From Escherichia coli (GTDB lineage Bacteria; Pseudomonadota; Gammaproteobacteria; Enterobacterales; Enterobacteriaceae): a stretch of DNA of 64,000 bases. The notes below the pieces were generated by a model that worked only from the letters and a program-made list of their open reading frames with translations, made no database searches and was not told where the DNA came from. Numbering within the stretch: the first letter of the stretch is position 1; the number at the start of each line of letters is the position of its first letter. The position numbers and the translations under genes are program-made. The DNA lies in the NCBI RefSeq assembly GCF_003019035.1, contig NZ_CP027447.1. One strand, written 5' to 3'. Below, in pieces: positions 37,881 to 52,163 of the stretch.

Positions 37881-38153
37881 AACTTCTACCTTTCTACCCT
37901 GTCGTTAACGAAGCAGGCGATGCCTGCTTTGAGGAAATTCTCACGCAGTATTGCCCGATTTTTGTTTAGTGTCTACTCATCTGACGGCATTTGCATCAGC
38001 AGTTTGCGTACCGTGCCGGAGCGTGCCATGTAACGCCTGTAACGAATTGATATTTCTCTGAACGCTGCTCGGTAAACACTAAAGAGGTGGCTGACGACGG
38101 CGCGCCTTGACTGGATACTGCCTTCACGCAAGACAACACGGAAGGCAGGGAAG

Positions 38154-39086
38154 ATGGATGCACCGAGTACCACACCGCATGATGCGGTATTTAAACAATT
38201 TTTAATGCATGCGGAAACGGCTCGCGACTTTCTGGATATTCATTTGCCAGCGGAGCTACGCGAACTGTGTGACCTCGACACGCTGCATCTTGAGTCGGGG
38301 AGTTTTATTGAGGAAAGCCTGAAAGGACACAGCACGGACGTACTCTATTCCGTGCAAATGCAGGGCAATCCCGGTTATTTGCATGTGGTGATTGAACATC
38401 AAAGCAAGCCGGATAAGAAAATGACCTTTCGCATGATGCGCTATGCCATTGCCGCCATGCACCGGCATCTGGAGGCGGATCACGATAAGCTGCCGCTGGT
38501 GGTGCCGATTCTGTTTTATCAGGGCGAGGCCACACCTTATCCGCTCTCAATGTGCTGGTTTGATATGTTTTACTCGCCGGAGCTGGCGCGACGCGTTTAC
38601 AACAACCCTTTCCCGCTGGTGGATATCACCATCACACCGGATGACGAAATCATGCAACATCGGCGGATTGCGATTCTCGAACTACTGCAAAAACATATTC
38701 GCCAGCGCGACTTAATGTTATTGCTGGAGCAACTGGTCACGCTGATTGACGAAGGGTACACTAGCGGAAGTCAGTTAGTTGCCATGCAAAACTATATGCT
38801 GCAACGCGGTCATACTGAACAAGCGGATTTGTTTTATGGTGTGCTGAGAGACAGGGAAACGGGAGGGGAGTCTATGATGACGCTGGCGCAGTGGTTTGAA
38901 GAGAGGGGAAGACAGGAGGAAAGGCAGGAGGTAAGACAGGAGGTAAGACAGGAGGTAATACAAGAGGTTAGACAGGAAGTAAGACAGGAATTCGCCCTGC
39001 GTTTTCTGAGTAAAGGGATGTCTCGGGAAGACGTTGCAGAGATGGCAAATTTACCTCTTGCTGAGGTTGATAAGCTGATTAGCTAA
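38154..39086 (+). CDS. rpnC: Recombination-promoting nuclease RpnC (YadD; PD-(D/E)XK, transposase_31 / YhgA-like family)
   Basis: 310-aa ORF; N-terminal nuclease region with candidate catalytic D62, E81, Q83 (TDVLYSV...VIEHQSK); C-terminal tail with (R/I)QEV repeats. Confidence 0.9.
   Translation: MDAPSTTPHDAVFKQFLMHAETARDFLDIHLPAELRELCDLDTLHLESGSFIEESLKGHSTDVLYSVQMQGNPGYLHVVIEHQSKPDKKMTFRMMRYAIAAMHRHLEADHDKLPLVVPILFYQGEATPYPLSMCWFDMFYSPELARRVYNNPFPLVDITITPDDEIMQHRRIAILELLQKHIRQRDLMLLLEQLVTLIDEGYTSGSQLVAMQNYMLQRGHTEQADLFYGVLRDRETGGESMMTLAQWFEERGRQEERQEVRQEVRQEVIQEVRQEVRQEFALRFLSKGMSREDVAEMANLPLAEVDKLIS
38874..39086 (+). CDS. Putative intragenic small protein (RpnS-like antitoxin) from internal in-frame start within rpnC
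   Basis: Strong internal SD gggaggggag 4-13 nt upstream of in-frame ATGATG at 38874; would yield a 70-aa protein equal to the RpnC C-terminal tail. Confidence 0.5.
   Translation: MMTLAQWFEERGRQEERQEVRQEVRQEVIQEVRQEVRQEFALRFLSKGMSREDVAEMANLPLAEVDKLIS
38910..38990 (+). repeat. 12-nt tandem codon repeat (AGACAGGAGGTA-like, about 7 units) in rpnC tail
   Basis: AGACAGGAGGAA AGGCAGGAGGTA AGACAGGAGGTA AGACAGGAGGTA ATACAAGAGGTT AGACAGGAAGTA AGACAGGAA read directly; encodes RQEE/RQEV repeats. Confidence 0.9.
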
Positions 39087-39154
39087 GTTATCTGCATTAT
39101 CAGTTATAGCCAGATAATTGTTATTGTTAACTGACCAGATAATCAAGGGAACAT

Positions 39155-39388
39155 ATGGAAATAAAGACACGGAGAGAAACCAGGCAGACGTTAGCGCAGT
39201 GGTTTGAAGAGAAGGGATTTCAGAAGGCGTATCAGGAGGCGTTTCAGAAGGGATATCAAGAGGAACTCCAGAAGGTAAGACAGGAATTCGCCCAGCGTTT
39301 TCTAAGTAAAGGGATGTCTCGGGAAGACGTTGCAGAGGTGACAACTTTACCTCTTACAGAGATTGATAAGCTAATTAACTCTAACTAA
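39155..39388 (+). CDS. Stand-alone Rpn C-terminal tail-domain paralog (77 aa), putative RpnS-like protein or tail cassette
   Basis: RBS aaggga 6 nt upstream of ATG; product MEIKTRRETRQTLAQWFEE...EFAQRFLSKGMSREDVAEVTTLPLTEIDKLINSN parallels the RpnC tail TLAQWFEE...EFALRFLSKGMSREDVAEMANLPLAEVDKLIS; about 90% nucleotide identity over 39275-39382 versus 38979-39086. Confidence 0.6.
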   Translation: MEIKTRRETRQTLAQWFEEKGFQKAYQEAFQKGYQEELQKVRQEFAQRFLSKGMSREDVAEVTTLPLTEIDKLINSN

Positions 39389-39483
39389 ATTGCCAGCGAT
39401 ATGAATAATCACTTACAGACGTCATCGCCATGACGTAGGGCAAATGAATAACTGGCGCCATTAGCCGTAGCGCCAGTTAAGTA

Positions 39484-40335
39484 TTACGCCAGCTCGACCA
39501 TTTTGTTGTCGATCAGGCGAGCATCGCCAAGCCAGGCGGCTACCAGAATCACCGCTCGTTTGCTGTTTTCAGAGATTTCCAGCAAGGTGTCGGCATCGCG
39601 AATCTGAATATCATCGGAACGGAAACCTTTTTCATTCAGTTCTTGCCCGGCAATAGCAATAATTTCATCGAGATCCCGTTCGCCAGCCTGCAATTTGTCG
39701 GCAATTGAACTTAAGACTTTGTAGAGACCCGGCGCAATTTTACGTTGTTCCGCCGTCAGATAGCCGTTACGGGAACTGAGCGCCAGACCGTCTTTCGCGC
39801 GCATAATCGGCACTCCGACAATCTCAATATCGAAGCCCATATCGGCAACCATTTTGCGGATCAGTGCCAGTTGCTGAAAATCCTTTTCACCGAAGCAGGC
39901 GATGTCCGGCTGGACCAGGTTGAACAGTTTGCTGACAATAGTCGAAACGCCGCGAAAATGTCCCGGACGGCTGGCACCTTCCAGCATGGTGGAAAGACCA
40001 GGAACATCAACATAGGTGTGGGTTTCAGTACCGTTCGGGTAGATCTCTTTTACCGAAGGCGCGAAAACTAAATCCACTTTACGTTTGTTCAGCTTTTCGC
40101 AGTCCTCTTGCAAGGTCCGTGGATAACGTGCCAGATCTTCCGGGCGGTCAAACTGCATTGGGTTAACGAAAATACTGACGACGACCACATCGGCGCGGGC
40201 TTTGGCTTCGTCGACCAGCTTCATATGGCCGTCGTGCAGGTTACCCATGGTGGGCACCAGCGCCACGCGCTTACCTTCCATACGCAGGCGGCGGATTTGC
40301 TGACGCAGCAGCGGCAGGGTTTCGATAATTAACAC
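39484..40335 (-). CDS. panC: Pantothenate synthetase
   Basis: 283-aa ORF; HIGH-like motif [10 protein letters not shown]. Confidence 0.96.
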
Positions 40336-40346
40336 AACGTCACTCC

Positions 40347-41141
40347 TTAATGGAAACTGTGTTCTTCGCCCGGGTAAACGCCGGACTCCACTTCAGCCAT
40401 ATACTGCCGCACAGCCGCGCGGATGTCGCCCGTTTCGGCGAGGAAATTTTTGGCGAATTTAGGAATATGACCGCCGGTAATGCCGAACGCGTCGTGCATC
40501 ACGAGGATTTGCCCGTCAGTGACGTTGCCTGCGCCAATACCGATAACCGGGATCGCCAGTGCTTCGGTAATGCGTTTTGCCAGCTCAACCGGCACGCACT
40601 CCAGTACCAGCAGTTGTGCCCCAGCAGCTTCTAATGCCAATGCATCGCTGAGCAGTCGATCGCCCGCTTCATCGCCGCGCCCCTGGACTTTGTAGCCACC
40701 GAAAATATTTACTGACTGTGGGGTTAGGCCTAAATGACCACAAACTGGAACGGCACGTTCGGTCAGCATTTGTACGGTTTCTACCAGCCACTCACCGCCT
40801 TCAATTTTGACCATGTTGGCTCCGGCACGCATTACCGTTGCGGCGTTTTCAAAGGCTTGTTCCGGCGTGGCATACGCCATAAATGGCAGGTCAGCCAGCA
40901 GAAGGCTGTTTGGCGCGCCGCGACGCACAGCGGCGGTGTGATAGGCGATATCGGCAACGGTAACCGGTAGCGTGGAGTCATGCCCCTGAACCGTCATCCC
41001 TAACGAATCGCCTACCAGCATGACGTTAAGTCCTTCTTCGGCAAACAGTTTCGCGAAGCTGTAGTCGTAAGCGGTGATGGTCGCGAAGCGTTTTTTTTCT
41101 TGCTTACATTTCTGAAGTGAAGCAATGGTGGTTGGTTTCAT
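40347..41141 (-). CDS. panB: 3-methyl-2-oxobutanoate hydroxymethyltransferase
   Basis: 264-aa ORF recognised as PanB; 11-bp gap to panC. Confidence 0.96.
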
Positions 41142-41253
41142 AACGAATCCTGATAAATGATGTTGTGCTGTCTCGCATTTTATCAGTCACATTGGTGGGG
41201 GCAATGATTTCTCTGTTGTGGCACCGCCATTACCAGACGGCACCACAATGTTA

Positions 41254-42525
41254 TCAGGGATAGGTAACCTGGAAAGTACTGGTGGCTTTAAATTCGCCGG
41301 GTTCAATAGCAATATTCCCGTCTTGTTTTAATGTAGCCTGGAAATGAAGTGGATACGTTATACCGTCATCTTCCGGGTAAATCGCATCTGAATCGTTATT
41401 CTGCGTCTGGCCCGTATTATCTTTATAAACAGAAGTTGAATCATTAGGTTTCAGTATCATGAGGGCACTTTTACTGTTTGCTAATCCTTCAATCAATACC
41501 CCAACGCCTTTTGCTGCGCCATTTCCTGTGAGAGTGTTACCAAGGAGTTGCCTGTTTTCAGTACCAACCTTTGTTGAAACTAATTTTGTCTCGATATTAG
41601 TCACACGAACGCAGTTTTGAAGTGAAATATCAAAAGGAACCGGTGTGGCACCGTTTCTTATTTGTGCTTCACTATACTCGCCCATTTTTACCGTAGAACC
41701 AGTAACAGATGTTCCACTTAACATAGCTGTAAAACAAGTGGGATTACTTAATTTAATATTTAGTAGGTCAAAATCAACTCGAAGAAAATAGCTGTGTTCG
41801 TTAATGCCGATACCAGCACCATAAGCTTTAAATGAATATAAATAGTTTGATGAGCGCGATAATGAAACTTGTTGAGTTACTGTTGGATCAAAGTTGGTAT
41901 CTGTATAAAATTCGATGGTAAGATTTTGATAAATACCGCCTACAGCCCAATATTTGCTGGATGTGTTGGCATTGTTACAACTTTGGTATAATATGCTTTC
42001 GCTTGGGTTGTACCATGAAAAATATTGTTCTGCAGAATCACCAATATATATTCCTGGTGAACTAACGTTAGTTACAGTACCGTAAGCTGACCACATATTT
42101 GAAATTAATATTGTATAATACAAACCGGGAACAGATGTATTGAATAGTTTATGGTTACCATATCTTTTTCCAGAGTCAACCATTGCATTTTCGATACGCA
42201 TTGCCCCGCCACTGGTGTTATTGCTTCTGTTACAATAAAGAAAGCCTCCGCCAGAAGCAGTATCTAACTGACTCCAATGTAATTTCACCCCTGTTGGACC
42301 CAGTTGTGTTGGTTTATAAAATACTAAATTATTTGTACTGGTACCATACCTGAACACGACTGTCACATCTCCATTTGGCCCGGTTTCTCTCCATTTTTGA
42401 TCTGACGGACCAACGCCGTAGTTATTCCCAACAACATATCCTACGAAATCATCAGTGCCAGCACTCGCGGTATAACAACTCAAGCACAGAATTAAAAAAA
42501 GAAAATATCTGAAGAATGTCTTCAT
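41254..42525 (-). CDS. yadC: Fimbrial tip adhesin-like protein YadC
   Basis: Start at [22 protein letters not shown] (signal peptide); last gene of the yad chaperone-usher operon; length differs slightly from what I recall for K-12. Confidence 0.85.
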
Positions 42526-42578
42526 TTTCACTCCACCATCCACTGCTGTAATAGTCGCAGTAATTTGTTTTTGGTATG

Positions 42579-43175
42579 TTACTCGTAGTAAATATCAATT
42601 AATACATGGCTTATGATTTGGCCGGGCATGACATTTAATACAGGGTTGATTTTTTGCATCCGTGTATAGAATTTCCAGGATGAATTGTTTAAATCAGCAG
42701 TCATCACCGGATAAATTGAACGAGAACTGCCCGCTGGGGTAAGAACATTAAATATATTAGCCGGGTCCTGAGTGGAAAATATTACTACACCTACGTTTTG
42801 AGCGCCGGCGACATTTTCATTTGCAAAAATTTGCTGAGAGCCTGTCGCCATCACGCCATTAAGCGGTTTAAAGTTAATATGTAACTGATTTAACACATTT
42901 CCAGAACCCTGGATGGCGCAGTCAGTCACAGTGATAGTGAACTCTCTCCCACCCGGATAATCATCTTCAGGTGCGACGTTACCAGAAAAATAATCCACAC
43001 CAACCACACCAAGGTCGATATTACCAAGGTTACTGAGGCCACTTTTACATGTACTGTTCTTGATATTGGCAACCATATCCACATCCAGCCCTGCATATAC
43101 AGGACTGGATGTGGCAAACAATAATGCCAGGAACAGACTTGTTTTTATCTTAATTTTTAGTTGAGAGGAAAGCAT
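42579..43175 (-). CDS. yadK: Fimbrial-like subunit YadK
   Basis: 198-aa ORF with signal peptide and fimbrial subunit C-terminal beta-strand. Confidence 0.88.
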
Positions 43176-43201
43176 AATCGGTCCCTGACTTTAATGGCCT
43201 G

Positions 43202-43807
43202 TTAGTTATAGGTGATAGAAAATGTTGCAGGTGCGGAAAACGGACCGGCAGTGATGTCGGTTTTGCTTTTATTTTTCTCTACCACCAGGCGTGCACTCAT
43301 AGGATGATATACTGACGTAGTTCCTGTTGCAGTGGAGATATTCACTTCCTGAGCGACTGGTGTTACGCAGCTAAATTGAGTCTTGCCGTCTGTACCAGGT
43401 GTCGTGGTATTCCATACTTCAACCGCAACAGCATTTGCTTTATCAGCAGCGGCGGAGCCGTTTGCAAAACCAGGCCCATCGTTGGCTGCTCCTTCACAAG
43501 TTGCGCGTTTAGTTAATTTTACGAGTGCTTTTTTATTAGGAATACCAGCACAATCCTTAAACTGTAACTTAAATATTTTAATTTTTGTTTTGGCATCAAT
43601 TTCAGGAATGTAAGCATCCCCAAATGCAATAACAGAAATAGGCTGATCATTGTCATCCACCAGGCTGGCGGTACAGGTTCCCGTCTCTACGGTTGCTTTA
43701 ACATTCAGCTTAACGCTATCGGTAGCTGCAAACAATTGGCTGGTGAATAGGGATGCCGCAAAAAAAACACCAGCGGGTAGTCCATAACATAATGTTTTAG
43801 ATTTCAT
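43202..43807 (-). CDS. yadL: Fimbrial-like subunit YadL
   Basis: Start at MKSKTLCYGLPAGVFFAASLFTSQLFA; 201 aa. Confidence 0.85.
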   Translation of the reverse strand: MKSKTLCYGLPAGVFFAASLFTSQLFAATDSVKLNVKATVETGTCTASLVDDNDQPISVIAFGDAYIPEIDAKTKIKIFKLQFKDCAGIPNKKALVKLTKRATCEGAANDGPGFANGSAAADKANAVAVEVWNTTTPGTDGKTQFSCVTPVAQEVNISTATGTTSVYHPMSARLVVEKNKSKTDITAGPFSAPATFSITYN

Positions 43808-43821
43808 TATTATCATCCCTG

Positions 43822-44388
43822 TTATTCATAAATGAAATTGAAAGTTGCCTGGGCGCGGAAATCGCCAGGAACACCACTGCCAGCCGTGGTTTCGCGCAGT
43901 GCAACGGTCAGTTCAAGAGTTTTGTCTGTATCACTAATTTCCCATGGAATAAAACTCGGCGCACTGTTTGGGATTAAGAATGTCGAATCATCTTCACCAA
44001 GTGCTTTTATACCCATACCAATATAATTAGTTGTTGATGTAGTGTCAGAAGAGAGTGGAACAATTAATGCGGGAGTAGTTCCGGAAGCATTCCCACTGAG
44101 CCTGGTATTGATTTTGCTGACGCCTGTGGTACAACCGCTGGCAACCAGATTAAAATTCGCCTGTGCTTGAGTCGTTTTATTTGCAATTTTGTCCAGACCA
44201 ATAGTTCCTGGGAAAGTTAATGTGTAGGTGTCACTCCCATCAGGGGTGACATTGTCGCCTGATAACGTAATGTTACAAGTTGATGCTTTTACGGTTGCTG
44301 TAAAATCAACATTAATGTCTGTTGCAAGTACAGAGGATGATAAAAATAATCCAGTCAGTATTGCCAATTTATGCAGTGTTATTCTCAT
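43822..44388 (-). CDS. yadM: Fimbrial-like subunit YadM
   Basis: Start at MRITLHKLAILTGLFLSSSVLA (signal peptide); upstream in-frame start at 44433 would overlap htrE. Confidence 0.82.
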   Translation of the reverse strand: MRITLHKLAILTGLFLSSSVLATDINVDFTATVKASTCNITLSGDNVTPDGSDTYTLTFPGTIGLDKIANKTTQAQANFNLVASGCTTGVSKINTRLSGNASGTTPALIVPLSSDTTSTTNYIGMGIKALGEDDSTFLIPNSAPSFIPWEISDTDKTLELTVALRETTAGSGVPGDFRAQATFNFIYE

Positions 44389-44407
44389 TATGTGAAATTC
44401 CCTGTTG

Positions 44408-47008
44408 TTACTGAATCTGACAACTAATTCCATTCAGAATAATAGTTTGCGCTATTTTTTCTGGTGCTGCGCTCTGCTGGTAATGAGCAAGGCAAGTGAC
44501 AGGTTTACCGTCGTCAAGCCAGTTGATACGTATGTTACCTTGTTGTTCTATACCTCGAACAAAGGCCTGACCACCTTGCCCTACATTGCCAATAATATTT
44601 CCGTTCTCGTCATAAATATCTGCGGCAAACGGAATGTTTTTACCGTCAGTTCGCTTGATGTTCATAATCGCTGATTGTCCCTGAACTGTTTCAAAACCAG
44701 CAAAGACAACAGACCCTTGGCGGGGGACAGTAATAGCACTGGTACTTTTCAATTCAACGTCATTTTCCAGACCGTTAATATCGAGTGCAATTCGGTTTTC
44801 ATGATAAGGGGAGAGCGCGTTAGTAACACCATATCCCCAACGATCTATCGTACTATTACCATAGTTAATACGCGCCCCTTTAGCTCCTGGCGCTTGTACA
44901 ACGGCCAGAGTGTCTGAGTCGCTAAAGCTGTCATTACTGAAGGTCAGGCCGCCGCTATGTAAAACAAATCCGCCGTCGGTATTAAATGAGATTTGACGGC
45001 TATTATCACTGCTTGCGGAAACTGAACTGGAAAGAGTTCCCCAGGGAGATTCATAGCTTGCATATCCGCCGATATAGCCCAAATCATCACTGGATTTCAT
45101 CATCGAATAGCCTGTATTGACGCTATAACTGATATGGTTTTCGGTGCTATAACCACTACTGCTGATACTGAGTTGATTGCTGCCGTTGAAATCACTATTT
45201 AACTGAGTATCAATGCTCTGAAAACCAGAGTCGCGATGTTCTGAACCCAGTAACTTTTCGATAGGAATGCTAAAGCTTAGATAGATGCTGTCTTCATTAC
45301 CGCCGTCCTGGCTCCAGGACCGTTGGGCACTAATGCTGTAGCTTCCCCACGATGCGCTGTTACTATAACCAATGGAGTAGTTAGTATTATTTTGTCCGTC
45401 CGCCCAATAGTCAGACCAACTTCCGGCAAGATAGAATGAGCCATAGTCTTTCTTTTCAAACTTGAGGGGTTGGTTAATACTAACCGTAACCTGATTTTTC
45501 ATGCGTGAATAGTTACGCATATTTTTAGGTTCCAGGTCCTGTTCCGGATGTTTTACTTCATCGATCAATGTCAGTGCATCGTTAAGCCCCAGATAATTCT
45601 GGGTTGAATAACGGTAAGCGGCGATATTGAGCGAGGTTCTTGTATCTTCAAATAACTTATTCCAGGAGATGCGATAGCTTTGCCCGCGGTAGGTTTTATC
45701 GTCCGGAATTTGCACATCCGAGTGGGTTACATCGACTGAAAACGCACCGTACGCGGTATTCAGGCCAAGGCCCAACAGCCCGGCAGTATAGTTATTATCG
45801 GTAATTTGAATACCGGTATAACCTGTAAGATAGTTGTTCAGACCATAGTAGTAGCTGGCCTGGAACAAATTTGGCTCATTTTGAATATCGTCTTTTAATA
45901 CCTGACCAGCACTGATGTCCCATCTTCCAACACCAGGGCGTTGCATCTGAATTACCGAAGAAAATGGCTGGGAAAAAGTTCGTTTTGTGCCATCAGATTC
46001 TTCGATAGTGATAATGAGATCGCTGCCGTAGCCTGATGGGCTTAAATCATCAATAACAAATGCTCCCGGCGGCACGGTAGTTTCATAGATTTTATAACCA
46101 CCCTGGGTAATGGTGACTTTTGCGTTGGTGTTAGCGACACCATGAATAATAGGCGCAAAACTAGCTAACGCAGGCGGTAGCATTCGGCTGTCGCTGTATA
46201 AACGAATACCGCGAATACTGACAGCATCAAAGGTTTCCCCAGTTGTGTATGACTCACCCACTATTAACTGTGAACGCAAAGAGGCCAGGTCGCGCTGCAA
46301 ATAGCGATTCTGAAAATCGTAATCACTGCCTACATTGGTCATCCAGTTGTAGTTGCCGGTTGCGCGAAGCCGCCATGCCCCCAGATTTATACCGCCGTTA
46401 AATGCCGCATAAACACTGTCGTTTTTTCTGTCTGGAATTTCGCTGTGATATGCGTTCACATTGTAGGCCAGCATTGCGGCGTTAATACCGTTTTCCCACA
46501 ATGACGGATCAACATAGTTTTGGTAATTCTTCATTATCCAGGCTTGAGGAACGTTGATATCCAGCCGTTGATCGTTGACGTCATAATGAACTGAAGCCTG
46601 GGGAATGATATTCGCCAAATCTAGACAATCTCCGAGTTCGCCTTCGCGCTGTAGAAGGATGGAATTCTCGGCATTTATATCTGGTCTATTAATGTGAAAC
46701 TGCAATAAATTCTTCAGGGTGATACAAGCCTGCGCATTCTTCTTACCTTCGAGGGTAATAAAGGAAATGCTTTGGTTGATAACCGGTTGATCATTGATAT
46801 AAACACTGACGTCATACACGCCGGGCAAGGTAGGGTTACCTTCGGTATACCGACTAAGGTCGATGTTAGAAGCATCTTGCCCCATCAAAAAGGTATTATC
46901 ATATTCAACGTGTTCAGCGCTTATGGCACAGGGGCTTAATAGCAATGCGCAAAACGAGGCTATATATGTAAGTTTGTTATTATGCGTTTTTATGATTTTT
47001 CTGGACAC
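44408..47008 (-). CDS. htrE: Outer membrane fimbrial usher HtrE
   Basis: 866-aa ORF, usher family; N-terminus differs from the K-12 sequence as I remember it, suggesting an allelic variant. Confidence 0.9.
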   Translation of the reverse strand: MSRKIIKTHNNKLTYIASFCALLLSPCAISAEHVEYDNTFLMGQDASNIDLSRYTEGNPTLPGVYDVSVYINDQPVINQSISFITLEGKKNAQACITLKNLLQFHINRPDINAENSILLQREGELGDCLDLANIIPQASVHYDVNDQRLDINVPQAWIMKNYQNYVDPSLWENGINAAMLAYNVNAYHSEIPDRKNDSVYAAFNGGINLGAWRLRATGNYNWMTNVGSDYDFQNRYLQRDLASLRSQLIVGESYTTGETFDAVSIRGIRLYSDSRMLPPALASFAPIIHGVANTNAKVTITQGGYKIYETTVPPGAFVIDDLSPSGYGSDLIITIEESDGTKRTFSQPFSSVIQMQRPGVGRWDISAGQVLKDDIQNEPNLFQASYYYGLNNYLTGYTGIQITDNNYTAGLLGLGLNTAYGAFSVDVTHSDVQIPDDKTYRGQSYRISWNKLFEDTRTSLNIAAYRYSTQNYLGLNDALTLIDEVKHPEQDLEPKNMRNYSRMKNQVTVSINQPLKFEKKDYGSFYLAGSWSDYWADGQNNTNYSIGYSNSASWGSYSISAQRSWSQDGGNEDSIYLSFSIPIEKLLGSEHRDSGFQSIDTQLNSDFNGSNQLSISSSGYSTENHISYSVNTGYSMMKSSDDLGYIGGYASYESPWGTLSSSVSASSDNSRQISFNTDGGFVLHSGGLTFSNDSFSDSDTLAVVQAPGAKGARINYGNSTIDRWGYGVTNALSPYHENRIALDINGLENDVELKSTSAITVPRQGSVVFAGFETVQGQSAIMNIKRTDGKNIPFAADIYDENGNIIGNVGQGGQAFVRGIEQQGNIRINWLDDGKPVTCLAHYQQSAAPEKIAQTIILNGISCQIQ

Positions 47009-47042
47009 GTTGTGCTTCCTGCTGCGTTTATTCCTGATTTAG

Positions 47043-47783
47043 TTACAGGCTGGCATTGCCTTCAATTGCACCACCAAAGTCATTTATGGCGAAGAAATGC
47101 ACTTTGGCAGAACTTGCTTTACCACTCATGCCTTTTATGTAGAAGGTTTCTTCACTCAGCGGGGCTACCATTTTTACATCCAGGGGGTAGGTTTTGCCAT
47201 TGGCGACTAAATCACCACTACTGAATGAGACGTGATACGGTGTCGGATTTGCGACGCGCAATGCAGTTTTTCCAGCAGAGGTTGCCCATGACCATTTCAG
47301 TGCTGCGGGTGCATCTGATGGCAGTCCGTTTAAACCTTCCGGGCGATAAAATAATTTGATACGCGTACGGAATGCCAATTGCAGAAGACTCTGGTTGGCG
47401 ACTTTATCTGCGTCAGGTTTGGGTGGAACCTCGAGTACGTTAAACCAGAAAACACTTTCTCGGTCTTTTGGCAGCGGTGAGGAAGCCGTGTACATCAATT
47501 TAATAGTTTGACCACGTTTGGCATCAATTCGCGAAACAGGAGGGGTGGCGGTAAATGGGACAGTAATACTCCCTGGTTCAGCACTATCGTCGCCAGTATC
47601 CAGCCAGCTCTGAACGAGTAACGGATTATTCCCCTTATTTTCCAGCCGAACATTAACGCTTTTTTCATTACTTTTATAAATTACGCGAGTTCCTGAAATT
47701 ACGATATCTGCTATTGCCGATGCGCTTAAGCTCATACAAGTGGCGAAGCATACAGCTGCAGTATGTTTAGCGTTTAAAAACAT
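47043..47783 (-). CDS. yadV: Periplasmic fimbrial chaperone YadV (EcpD)
   Basis: 246-aa ORF, PapD-like chaperone with signal peptide. Confidence 0.92.
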   Translation of the reverse strand: MFLNAKHTAAVCFATCMSLSASAIADIVISGTRVIYKSNEKSVNVRLENKGNNPLLVQSWLDTGDDSAEPGSITVPFTATPPVSRIDAKRGQTIKLMYTASSPLPKDRESVFWFNVLEVPPKPDADKVANQSLLQLAFRTRIKLFYRPEGLNGLPSDAPAALKWSWATSAGKTALRVANPTPYHVSFSSGDLVANGKTYPLDVKMVAPLSEETFYIKGMSGKASSAKVHFFAINDFGGAIEGNASL

Positions 47784-47880
47784 AAACCATTCCCGACAGA
47801 GTTAATTAAAATAGGGAGTAACATTCCACTATTAAGAAAGTTACTCCCATAGATATTCAGTTTATGAATCTAACGAAGGA

Positions 47881-48465
47881 TTACTGGTAAGTAATGGTAT
47901 ATGCAGTGTTGGTTTTAACATAACCAGCAGTTGGTGCCTGGCTTGCTTCAGCACGGACATAGGATGCTTTAAAATCATAGGTTGCAGATTTAGTCGTAGC
48001 GTCCAGCGTTTTTGTGTAAATATCGCCTGGGTTGTTAATTTGAACCTGTTTGATAGTGGAACCATCAATATTGTGCAGGGCAATATTTACGCCGTCAGAA
48101 GGCGTGTTAATAGACATATCGTTGTTCAGAGTCCCTTTGCTGTTGCCAAAGAACACGGAACCGAAGGTCATTTTTGCGGTGCTACCAGGATTCGGGTTTG
48201 CATTGCTGCAGTCAACGGTGATGCTGAAAGGTTTAGCTTTAGCACCTACGGTGTCATTCAGTACGCCAGCACTGATTTCAGCAACAGTTGCAGTTTGCAG
48301 AAGCACCAGGCCATCTTTGTTGCCACCATCAACACGGGTTTCACAGGTGTTATCAACTACCAGACCACTGATATTTAATTGGCCACCGTCCAGTGCAGCA
48401 GAAGCATTACCAGCAACCATTGCTAACATCAAGCTGGACAGCGCAAAACCTAATTTTTTAGACAT
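47881..48465 (-). CDS. yadN: Major fimbrial subunit YadN
   Basis: Start at [23 protein letters not shown]; first gene of yad operon, followed upstream by about 300 bp of AT-rich DNA. Confidence 0.88.
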
Positions 48466-48772
48466 AATAATCCTTGAATAATATTCCATGAGTTTAACTT
48501 TAATCAGCCCCCCTCAAGCAGGAAGTCCCGAGAAAGAAAAGGTGAATGGTTTGTTAATGATGGATGTTTGGATTTACCGAATGTAACATCTGTTCATCAT
48601 TAGGGGAGTATTGTGCACATTTAATATTAAATATCCACTTAATTCAATTTTAAGTAAAACTAAATATATAATGTGACGATAATGGTGTATATGGGCGGGG
48701 CTGCCAAGTGGGGTAAAATATTATATGTTTATGATTATATTCTGGGGCGAATTAATTGCAATTGTGGGAAGG

Positions 48773-49291
48773 CTATTTTCGGAATTTATTTATATTTGCA
48801 ACACTATTGTATTGCCATTTATTTAATTCATCGAATTTATTTATTCGTAAAAAGTTGTCTAATACTGTCCCATCAGGAAACACTAACTTCGGCGCAATTT
48901 CAAACAGTGGCCACAGCATAAAGCCACGATTTTTCATATCGTAGTGCGGAACGGTCAGACGTTCGGTATTTATTACTTCATTACCAAACAGCATGATGTC
49001 GAGATCCAGCGTGCGCGGTCCCCAGCGTTCAGCTTTACGGACGCGACCTTGCTGCAATTCGATACGTTGTGTGTGATTGAGTAGCTCTTCAGGGGCAAGA
49101 GTGGTTTCCAGCGCGACGGCGGCATTTAAGTAATCGGGTTGATCTTGCGGCCCCAGCGGTGGGGTGCGGTAAAACGAAGAAACAGCAAGAATGCGGCTTT
49201 CTGGAATATCGCCTAATGCTTTCAGGGCAGCATTGACCTGCTCCAGCGGAGAGGCCAGATTGCTGCCTATGGCAATATACGCCACTGTCAT
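48773..49291 (-). CDS. folK: 2-amino-4-hydroxy-6-hydroxymethyldihydropteridine pyrophosphokinase
   Basis: 172-aa ORF starting [12 protein letters not shown]; start overlaps pcnB stop (ATGA); 3' end extends into AT-rich DNA. Confidence 0.92.
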
Positions 49292-50685
49292 GCGGTACCC
49301 TCACGACGCGGTGCGCGTTTGCGTGGACGACGAGTACGACGACGCGGTGACGGTTCTTCATCCAGTTCGTTAAGCATCCCTTTTTGGTCTGGCGGCGCGG
49401 AAACCTGGAACTCACCCCACCATTTCACCAGACGTTGCAGTTCAGCGTTACGCTCAACTTCGGCTCGTAAGGCCAACAGGTCGTATGCCGCACGGAACTT
49501 AGGATGCTCCAGCAGTTTCCATGCGCGTTTTCCCTGACGACGGGACATACGCAACTGCAACTGCCAGATATCGCGAGTTAGCGTAGTCAGACGTTTCGGG
49601 ATCGCCAGTGAACGGCAGGCTTCGTCCAGCACGTCGTTCATCGCCAGTGCGAAAGCGTCGTGATAGGTCAGGCCGCTCTCCTGAGCAATTTTCTGTGCCG
49701 TCTCCAGCAGTGGATACCAGAACATGGCGGCAAACAGGAACGCCGGGTTCACGCGCATATCGTTATGGATACGCGTATCGGTATTCTTCAGCACCTGTTC
49801 AATGATCCGCTCCATCGGGCTGTCGCCATTTTCCGTGAAGTAGCGGGTAATGGTCGGGAACAGCGGCTGGAACAGATGATATTCACACAGCAGCTTATAA
49901 GTTTCGTAACCGTAGCCCGCTTGCAACAGTTTCAGCGATTCTTCAAACAGACGTGCCGGTGGGATATCGTTCAGTAAGGTTGCCAGGCGTGGGATCGGCT
50001 CGGCGGTTTCCGGGCTGATGCGCATGCCCAATTTGGCGGCAAAACGAACCGCGCGAAGCATCCGTACCGGATCTTCACGGTAGCGCGTTTCCGGGTTACC
50101 AATCAGACGGATAACGCCGTCTTTCAGATCCTTCATGCCGCCAACGTAATCACGGACGGTAAAATCTGCCACGCTGTAATACAGGCTGTTGATAGTGAAA
50201 TCGCGGCGCTGGGCGTCTTCTTCGATGGAGCCGAAAATGTTGTCGCGCAGCAACATACCGTTTTGCCCGCGTTGGGAGGTCGTGCGGTCGCTGACGTTAC
50301 CTTCGTGATGTCCACGGAAGGTCGCAACTTCGATAATCTCCGGGCCAAACATCACATGAGCCAGACGGAAACGGCGACCCACCAGGCGGCAGTTACGGAA
50401 CAGTTTGCGCACCTGCTCTGGCGTGGCGTTGGTGGTCACGTCAAAATCTTTCGGCTTTTTGCCAAGTAACAGGTCGCGCACGCCGCCGCCAACCAGCCAG
50501 GCTTCGTATCCCGCTTTATTGAGCCTGTACATTACCTTCAGGGCATTTTCACTGATATCTTTGCGGGAAATAGCATGCTGCTCACGCGGGATCACCGTCA
50601 CCTGTGGACGGGCGACTGCCTGTTCAGCCTCGCTTTCCTCGCGGCTTAGCACCTTGCGGCAAAAATTAGCGACTCGGGTAAAAAT
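49288..50685 (-). CDS. pcnB: Poly(A) polymerase I
   Basis: Start assigned to the AUU codon encoding the I of ...[10 protein letters not shown] (established non-canonical start), 465 aa; ORF-track frame extends 7 codons further upstream. Confidence 0.9.
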
Positions 50686-50744
50686 AGTACACCTCGGTAG
50701 TGTCAAACATCATTCAGGACAAAAAAATAGCGGCTAATCATAGC

Positions 50745-51641
50745 TCAGCATGACGCATTTGAGAATGTTGAATTTACAATTGCCGACTCAGGCACGGCAG
50801 TCAGCGTCCAGTTTTTGACGGCTGACTGAAGGATTTGCTCGACGCTGAAATCCTGCCAGTGTGTTTCTACCTGCTGACCCAGAAAATGAAGTGCCGCGAT
50901 TAACACCGGGCGCGGATCGCCTTTCGGCAACGCAGGCGCATGATTCTGCTTGGAAAGTTTAGCGCCTTGTGTGTTAAGCGCCAGCGGTAAATGAATGTAA
51001 TCTGGCACTTTCCAGCCAAAAAGCTGGTACAGCGAGATTTGTCGCACTGTCGGTTCAATCAAATCTGCCCCACGAACAATTTCTGTGACGTCCTGGAAGT
51101 GATCATCGACCACCACCGCCAGGTTATAGGCAAACAAACCATCACGACGATGAATAATAAAATCTTCTTGCGCCAGTTTTTCGTCGGCGTGAATAATTCC
51201 GCGTAGTTGATCAGTAAACTGCGTGACCGGATGCAACTGCCGAATTCGCACAGCCGCGTTGTCTGGTCCATGATGCAAATCCCGGCAATGACCGTCGTAA
51301 ATACCGCCAATGCTTTGAATACGCGCACGCGTGCAGGTGCAGTAATAACTTAGTCCTTGCTCATATAACCAGGCGAGTGCTTCGCGATAGGCGTGGTGAC
51401 GTTGCGATTGCCAGAGAACGTCGCCGTCCCAGTGCAGGCCGTAATGTTCCAGCTGGCGCAGGATAGTCTCTGCGGCACCGGGAACTTCACGAGGCGGGTC
51501 GATATCTTCTATGCGTACCAGCCAGCGACCTTGCCGGGCGCGAGCCTGTAAATAGCTGCCAAGCGCGGCAATCAGAGAGCCAAAATGAAGCTCGCCGGAA
51601 GGAGAGGGGGCGAAGCGACCAATATAGTGTGTGTCTGTCAT
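50745..51641 (-). CDS. gluQ: Glutamyl-Q tRNA(Asp) synthetase
   Basis: Start placed at [22 protein letters not shown] (298 aa) because the dksA terminator hairpin lies just upstream; a 308-aa form starting at 51671 is the alternative. Confidence 0.85.
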
Positions 51642-51650
51642 CTCTTTGAA

Positions 51651-51680
51651 CAAAAAATAAGGCGGGAGCATTTCCCGCCT
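51651..51680 (-). terminator. Intrinsic terminator downstream of dksA, upstream of gluQ
   Basis: On minus strand: ggcgggaaatgctcccgcc hairpin followed by TTATTTTTTG. Confidence 0.8.
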
Positions 51681-51707
51681 GTGGTAAACGTGATGGAACG
51701 GCTGTAA

Positions 51708-52163
51708 TTAGCCAGCCATCTGTTTTTCGCGAATTTCAGCCAGCGTTTTGCAGTCGATGCACAGATCGGCTGTCGGGCGCGCTTCCAGACGGCGAATACC
51801 AATTTCAACACCGCAGGATTCGCAGTAGCCGAAATCTTCGTCTTCCACTTTTTTCAGCGTCTTCTCGATCTTTTTGATCAGCTTACGCTCGCGATCGCGG
51901 TTACGCAGTTCGAGGCTGAACTCTTCTTCCTGGGCTGCACGGTCTACCGGGTCCGGGAAGTTGGCTGCTTCATCCTGCATATGTGTAACGGTGCGATCGA
52001 CTTCATCCCTGAGTTGATTACGCCATGCTTCCAGAATACGACGGAAGTGCGCCAGCTGGGCTTCGTTCATATACTCTTCGCCCGGCTTCTCCTGATATGG
52101 CTCCACCCCAGCGATGGCGAGAATACTCAGGGACGATGTTTTACGGTTTTGCCCTTCTTGCAT
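51708..52163 (-). CDS. dksA: RNA polymerase-binding transcription factor DksA
   Basis: Start at [15 protein letters not shown]; 151 aa; C4 zinc finger [25 protein letters not shown]. Confidence 0.96.

Follow-up and report, generated by a model that had tools for sequence, protein, structure and literature searches.

A probable stop-loss allele of folK (HPPK) within an AT-rich block exchanged between Escherichia coli strains beside the yad fimbrial locus

The closest described counterpart of the protein studied here is FolK of E. coli K-12, a 159-aa HPPK (PDB 1HKA, 1DY3, 8SIF) that is encoded at the same pcnB-folK-yadN locus and is nearly identical over residues 1-141. Residues 142-159 of the K-12 protein read EMLRQILHTRAFDKLNKW, whereas the FolK encoded in the window, i.e., the whole 64,000-nt stretch of E. 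coli DNA analysed, has a different tail allele and 13 extra residues after W159. Additions behind this fold are known from natural HPPK-DHPS fusions, which continue past the last HPPK helix with a linker and an entire further domain, the active site not being altered (PMC2994781). The fusions of Francisella tularensis (3MCM/4PZV), plants and fungi likewise demonstrate that the HPPK fold tolerates polypeptide added after its last helix, but their additions are conserved structured linkers plus an enzyme domain, in contrast to the unconserved 13-residue tail, predicted to be disordered, of the window's FolK. At the gene level, stop-codon shift in prokaryotic genes (Vakhrusheva et al. 2011, as relayed in PMC7246954 and PMC4465819) is likewise a process in which a point mutation recruits adjacent non-coding DNA, and the cases summarized in these two accounts share with ours the 3′ end of a conserved gene and an extension that is short, intergenic in composition and unconserved. 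The folK case differs from them in that it lies inside a recombining hypervariable block and in that the recruited DNA holds a conserved non-coding motif.

Described relatives could also be found for the DNA downstream of folK. The concept of switched intergenic regions, or horizontal regulatory switching, is that of Oren et al. (2014, PNAS), as relayed with the Piggy tool (Thorpe et al. 2018, PMC5890482). A yadN/folK "promoter island" bound by H-NS was reported in K-12 (start 156927, 379 bp; Panyukov & Ozoline 2013, PMC3661553 Table 1), and repression of the yadN promoter by H-NS was established experimentally in ExPEC for alleles other than the one in the window (PMC13245861). These promoter-island and H-NS studies concern the same locus in K-12, CFT073 and EC958 and were not directed at allelic variation of the block or at its consequences for the C-terminus of FolK, and the block in the window belongs to a different allele family from that of the K-12 promoter island. 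Set against these systems, the window very probably holds an ordinary folK gene with a rare stop-loss allele, situated within an AT-rich block exchanged by homologous recombination; the enzyme should still work, and the extension is most likely near-neutral. The features of folK that underlie this reading are as follows.

48773..49291, minus strand: folK (HPPK) CDS, 172 codons plus TAG, with an ATG start; identical DNA is annotated in RefSeq, and the protein matches NF007595 and PF01288.
48872..49291, minus strand: conserved part of folK, nt 1-420, codons 1-140, with the whole HPPK domain (residues 5-134); GC 0.51, identity 0.87-1.0.
48815..48871, minus strand: variable canonical tail, codons 141-159; GC 0.26, identity 0.58-0.61; groups genealogically with the spacer block.
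48812..48814, minus strand: codon 160, CAA (Gln), at the ancestral stop position according to alignments and a per-allele codon table.
48776..48814, minus strand: 13-codon read-through extension made of former intergenic DNA; GC 0.24, predicted disordered.
48776..48796, minus strand: conserved 21-nt motif AATATAAATAAATTCCGAAAA at a fixed offset from the canonical stop; 0 matches expected in the window by chance.
48773..48775, minus strand: TAG, the new stop codon; the nearest 159-aa allele also has this triplet in frame, where it lies beyond the translated part.

The first-pass annotation had described this ORF as encoding 172 aa, and the ATG-to-TAG reading frame at 48773..49291 on the minus strand confirms it; the ATG overlaps the stop codon of pcnB (ATGA). 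Its assignment to the family is supported by full-length profile matches. PF01288 scored 133 bits (cutoff 25.7) with profile positions 1-116 of 116 on residues 5-134, TIGR01498 scored 158 bits (cutoff 54.1) with 128 of 128 profile positions on residues 4-134, and the NCBIfam equivalog NF007595 scored 333 bits (cutoff 252) with 159 of 159 positions on residues 1-159. Twelve residues (G9, S38, N56, R93, D96, D98, L112, P115, H116, R122, F124 and P128), defined as columns showing no variation across 104 diverse HPPKs, are all present, and all of them lie upstream of residue 141. Over 159 residues the protein is about 92% identical to the solved E. coli HPPK structures (E = 2.5e-95), whose chains (8sif, 1hka/1dy3 family) align with residues 1-159 and end in ...LNKW. 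The length of 159 aa given for K-12 FolK in the first-pass annotation was right, since the PDB chains and the RefSeq alleles agree on it: of the eight other alleles fetched first, seven have a folK of 480 nt, which corresponds to 159 aa, and the allele L007 has one of 477 nt. The longer C-terminus is lacking in K-12, the PDB chains and most RefSeq entries, but not in all of them, as the identical 172-aa form is already in RefSeq. Every genome having folK carries one copy.

Composition and conservation both change inside the gene. The GC content is 0.51 over folK nt 1-420, 0.26 over nt 421-477, 0.24 over nt 478-519 and 0.35 in the spacer up to yadN. The AT-richness of the 3′ end noted in the first-pass annotation is therefore real according to the GC profile, but it covers 31 codons (142-172) rather than the last ~25, and only the last 13 of these are extra, codons 142-159 being a diverged form of the normal tail. 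Among 11 alleles compared in 30-nt windows, mean pairwise nucleotide identity is 0.87-1.0 throughout pcnB and folK nt 1-420 and 0.58-0.61 at nt 421-480; the drop among E. coli alleles, from about 0.93 to about 0.58, starts at nt ~421 (codon 141). In the protein, residues 1-141 hardly vary among Escherichia, Salmonella and Citrobacter, and residues 142-159 are strain-variable, with L144 and L148 kept and the terminal W usually kept. The alignment of FolK proteins that had been proposed at first pass thus places the end of conservation at nt ~421 / P139, so that variable DNA begins inside folK. With the boundary between core and variable DNA lying inside the gene, the last 18 canonical codons vary by strain and travel with the AT-rich spacer. 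Pairwise identities of the tail correlate with those of the spacer (Spearman 0.92) and those of the folK core with those of pcnB (0.86), and the correlation between tail and core is 0.50.

The 13 extra residues have a different origin. Eight sampled alleles (L002-L006, L008, L010 and L011) have TAA or TGA at codon 160, and the 158-aa allele L007 already ends at codon 159. In the nearest allele, that of strain 2013C-4282 (L010), the site reads AAA TGG TAA GGC AAT AGT TTT GCA AAT ATA AAT AAA TTC CGA AAA TAG, and the window reads AAA TGG CAA TAC AAT AGT GTT GCA AAT ATA AAT AAA TTC CGA AAA TAG. Across the extension 38 of 42 nt are identical, with four differences and no gaps, and one of the differences is a T-to-C change at the first position of the stop. 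Orthologues thus terminate at the homologous codon, and the sister allele carries colinear, homologous non-coding DNA behind it. A single-base difference in the stop together with colinear sister DNA argues for stop-loss read-through, and on this comparison the extra residues are best read as the product of a point mutation (TAA to CAA) opening into homologous, formerly intergenic DNA. Within the rare block type, one T-to-C change has converted the ancestral TAA into CAA, upon which ribosomes continue for 13 codons through former intergenic DNA up to the next in-frame TAG. Hypothetical loss of the stop in the other alleles would give read-through of 9-24 codons, and read-through of at least 13 codons occurs in 41% of composition-matched shuffles of the spacer (P = 0.41), so the length of the extension carries no signal.

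The same comparison bears on the proposal, made at first pass, that the C-terminus was remodelled by the boundary of an adjacent island. It stands for about codons 142-159, which travel with the spacer beyond a boundary at nt ~421, but it fails for the 13 residues of the extension, which are colinear with sister non-coding DNA in which the stop differs by one base. In its strongest form the proposal would be a junction fusion, i.e., that insertion or replacement of an island removed the 3′ end of folK with its stop and fused foreign DNA open for at least 13 codons. The core/variable boundary truly lies in folK at nt ~421, the tail is AT-rich like the spacer, and tails differ completely between types of fimbrial locus (L007 and L008 versus the Yad types), all of which such a fusion would account for. 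However, the stop at codon 160 is kept in eight of nine other alleles and comes only one codon earlier in the very different L007, the extension is colinear with the sister allele save for the single-base change, and the hallmarks of a mobile element (tRNA, integrase, flanking repeats) are absent. We consider a junction fusion quite unlikely and retain stop loss as the origin of the extension.

No tRNA gene could be found in 38000-52000, no direct repeats pair two boundaries of the locus, and the interval from folK to panB holds fimbrial genes only, with no integrase. A mobile genomic island with an insertion junction was accordingly ruled out, as it would come here with no tRNA, integrase or flanking repeats. 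Yad is a core-associated, ancient fimbrial locus common to Salmonella, where it is called Sta (PMC3559732). Given the lack of island hallmarks and the core-associated status of Yad, the region is therefore allelic and homologously recombining, and strains differ at the Yad locus because one allele has replaced another by homologous recombination, not through insertion of an island.

A sequencing or assembly error, or an ORF call over-extended into AT-rich DNA, would be a trivial explanation of the longer protein. Errors are frequent in AT-rich, low-complexity DNA, and a break at this point leaves partial FolK at the contig ends of many draft assemblies, but the same sequence recurs in complete as well as draft assemblies that are independent of one another, and the CAA codon is shared by a second, diverged haplotype, so that we give an artefact next to no credence. 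E. coli SCU-301 has 100% identical DNA with a 519-nt folK in RefSeq (WP_096986647.1), and four further NCBI assemblies are 100% identical to the window over 3.5 kb. GF131 (WP_089582842.1) represents the second 172-aa haplotype, with the same CAA, one F-to-L change in the tail, and a YadN and chaperone different from those of the window haplotype. This change is the only substitution in the extension between the two haplotypes; it is non-synonymous and also alters the 21-nt motif. A megablast search with the 131-nt tail region matched SCU-301 only, as an exact 28-nt word is required and the DNA is AT-rich, and a blastn "distant" search recovered GF131 and the sister alleles. The 172-aa form occurs in two of 5,426 complete E. 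coli genomes (SCU-301 and GF131), and the exact protein is present on 130 contigs and that of GF131 on 53, ~180 together; the window-type allele is identical over 3.5 kb at all four places compared (23 contigs), so much of its count may represent one clone.

The wider block in which folK ends comprises three further features.

48466..48772, minus strand: folK-yadN spacer (yad promoter region); AT-rich and hyper-diverged, mean pairwise identity 0.66.
48379..49067, minus strand: recombination tract relative to S1-IND-02-A (L005), from folK nt 225 to yadN nt 87; holds all differences.
47881..48465, minus strand: yadN, major subunit of Yad chaperone-usher fimbriae (RefSeq); its first 87 nt (signal peptide) are in the exchanged tract.

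The comparison with S1-IND-02-A covered pcnB-folK-yadN and the start of the chaperone gene. The left flank shows no difference in 1,724 nt (1,500 nt of pcnB plus folK nt 1-224) and the right flank none over 986 nt from yadN nt 88. Between them, identity is 40-65% from folK nt 421 to ~25 nt upstream of the yadN ATG, and a few further SNPs stretch the tract to folK nt 225 and yadN nt 87. By segment, identity is 100% for pcnB, 99% for the folK core, 57% for the spacer and, in amino acids, 98% for YadN. The same flanking pair is hence near-identical with intergenic identity well below 90%, and a ~0.7-kb tract between identical flanks fits a switched intergenic region. As in the switched intergenic regions outlined in PMC5890482, the flanks are 99-100% identical, the intergenic part ~57% and the tract discrete. 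It is unlike them in that its left edge lies in an essential gene, where it takes 18 codons, and its right edge takes the YadN signal peptide.

From these results we read the following course of events. One short AT-rich block, which exists in several deeply diverged E. coli forms, runs from the last 18 canonical codons of folK across the entire spacer into the first ~90 nt of yadN and is swapped between strains by homologous recombination; one crossover falls within conserved folK sequence, and the second in yadN or immediately before it. The window genome carries a ~0.7-kb tract of a rare block type within an otherwise common haplotype. Among the 5,426 complete genomes, the K-12 type of the block occurs in 3,062, the ST131 type in 554, the ATCC 8739 type in 175, the L007 type in 15 and the type of the window in 2, and other types are found in about 1,600 further genomes.

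A more specific reading, which we put forward as a tentative possibility that falls well short of an even chance, is that the C-terminal helix of FolK, the yad promoter region silenced by H-NS and the signal peptide of YadN constitute a repeatedly exchanged cassette, in which selection on yad regulation or antigenic variation keeps ancient promoter alleles and drags the FolK C-terminus along. Such a cassette would be roughly 0.4-0.7 kb long, comprise no fewer than five or six highly divergent E. coli allele families, and have its left edge pinned at the end of the HPPK domain (VFPDG motif). A near-invariant housekeeping protein would then bear a hypervariable and occasionally length-variable tail, and the conserved patches, the 21-nt motif and GTGCACAATA, would be the functional regulatory core of the cassette.

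The yad locus as a whole is a mosaic: the segment 40700-41500 (panB/yadC side) matches 53 complete genomes at ≥99%, whereas 48700-48900 on the folK side matches only 2. The chaperone protein of the window is identical to that of S1-IND-02-A. An in-frame ATG (48463-48489, minus strand; 202 aa) precedes the RefSeq start of yadN (MSKKLG, 194 aa) by eight codons, and it is kept in most, not all, alleles.

As regards the enzyme, the Pfam/TIGRFAM HPPK domain ends at P134, and conservation across 104 diverse HPPKs, once aligned, does not extend beyond P139. Among the 150 best HPPK cluster representatives, only a single alignment extends past residue 160, reaching residue 162. The tail after the domain measures 18-52 residues (median 31) in 109 homologues of monofunctional size, 25 in K-12 and 38 in the window allele, and 14% of the 109 have at least 38. 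The AF2 model built from the 104-sequence alignment has a mean pLDDT of 93, a pTM of 0.88 and the canonical HPPK alpha-beta-alpha order of strands and helices; it predicts a helix at 144-151 and a short strand at 157-158, with pLDDT below 50 only for residues 163-172. An earlier model from a shallow enterobacterial alignment (pLDDT 62.8) was set aside. The structural tolerance that the first-pass annotation had proposed to check is supported to this extent: the extension is predicted to be disordered and outside the domain, and HPPK-DHPS fusions tolerate C-terminal addition.

The folate pathway to which folK belongs is essential in E. coli. Given this, the single gene copy and the persistence of the allele on ~180 contigs, we infer that the 172-aa FolK is functional, and it would be expected to retain HPPK activity, the ATP-dependent pyrophosphorylation of 6-hydroxymethyl-7,8-dihydropterin. 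The enzyme would still work, as the extension begins behind the final structured elements (helix 144-151, strand 157-158) and is not part of the catalytic HPPK domain, and as no other folK copy is present. Further variants in tail length exist in Escherichia and Salmonella (P0003, P0037, P0071, P0100 and P0121), including a frameshifted protein of 155 aa (99 contigs), a 171-aa read-through due to a frameshift, and forms of 160-163 aa; these independent variants point to weak constraint on the C-terminus of FolK. The extension is most likely a floppy tail, neutral or nearly so, and it may have arisen as a by-product of that weak constraint combined with hitch-hiking on the variable yad regulatory region. 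The terminal Trp159, which most Escherichia tail types share, has lost its C-terminal position in the window's FolK, and this could have an effect.

The DNA recruited into the extension has features of its own. In every Yad-type allele examined, the 21-nt motif AATATAAATAWWTTCYGAAAA lies 16 nt after the canonical folK stop; it is non-coding in all 159-aa Yad-type alleles and encodes the last seven FolK residues in the window. Its conservation stands out against the surrounding spacer, which shows only ~57% identity between allele families, and it could be a candidate regulatory or H-NS nucleation site. A second conserved spacer patch, GTGCACAATA, lies at ~48606-48638 and overlaps an AT-rich palindrome at 48613-48638. 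The K-12 promoter island spans the spacer and reaches ~53 nt into folK (157253-157732), and therefore the AT-rich silenced region and the variable FolK tail coincide. Promoter-like sites are not enriched (4 versus 2.8 expected), and an Rfam scan of 48300-49100 (E <= 1) returned no RNA family. Between the folK stop and yadN the scan revealed no intrinsic terminator, both terminator-like matches lying inside folK. The sense strand 3′ of folK (48570-48772, minus strand, and likewise in L002-L010) is C-rich and G-poor, with C:G ~2:1 over 200 nt. Judging from this strand composition and the missing intrinsic terminator, Rho-dependent termination of the pcnB-folK transcript is suggested, speculatively.

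These features are also what might speak for an extension that is functional and under selection, either as a basic tail (...NKFRK) altering the stability, expression or interactions of FolK, or because translation through the motif and H-NS region alters termination or yad silencing. At least two haplotypes and ~180 contigs retain the allele, the motif that its last seven codons cover is common to all Yad-type spacers, the promoter island of K-12 extends 53 nt into folK, the DNA that follows folK is C-rich and G-poor on the sense strand, with no intrinsic terminator found, and Lys/Arg C-termini are enriched in bacteria and raise protein levels there (PMC7246954). Nevertheless, the allele is rare (2/5,426 complete genomes), the length of the extension is chance-like, the added residues are predicted to be disordered and match no family, and the sole tail substitution between the 172-aa haplotypes is non-synonymous and alters the motif too. 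Selection for the extension is thus improbable in our judgement, and a near-neutral tail is the preferred reading.

With such a tail, the allele would show by natural example that 13 residues added at the C-terminus are tolerated by E. coli HPPK, an antibacterial drug target for which many crystal structures exist. That FolK residues 142-159 are free to vary could be useful for tagging, construct design and the interpretation of variant calls. For annotation, core genes may truly differ in 3′ length, and such a difference may flag where a recombining block ends. In E. coli, the variable yad regulatory region runs into the coding sequence of the neighbouring essential gene, and therefore pan-genome tools that treat genes and intergenic regions separately will mis-place the boundary. 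A 172-aa FolK in RefSeq and stop-codon shift in a well-known gene are already known. In the literature on folK and yadN we found no description of a FolK tail polymorphism, and what is mildly new is that the left end of the variable cassette around the yad promoter falls within an essential gene, giving FolK a hypervariable C-terminus.

Two observations concern the surroundings of the block. Short-read assemblies often break exactly within the AT-rich FolK tail and spacer, and partial FolK proteins of 149-157 aa (P0004, P0007, P0010, P0076, P0081 and P0082) lie at the ends of ~65-70-kb contigs. A gene for an Rpn-family recombination-promoting nuclease and a small hypothetical gene are situated between panC and panD (~38150-39090; 12604-13536 in L012), a few kb from the variable yad locus, at a position that we take to be that of K-12 rpnC/yadD.
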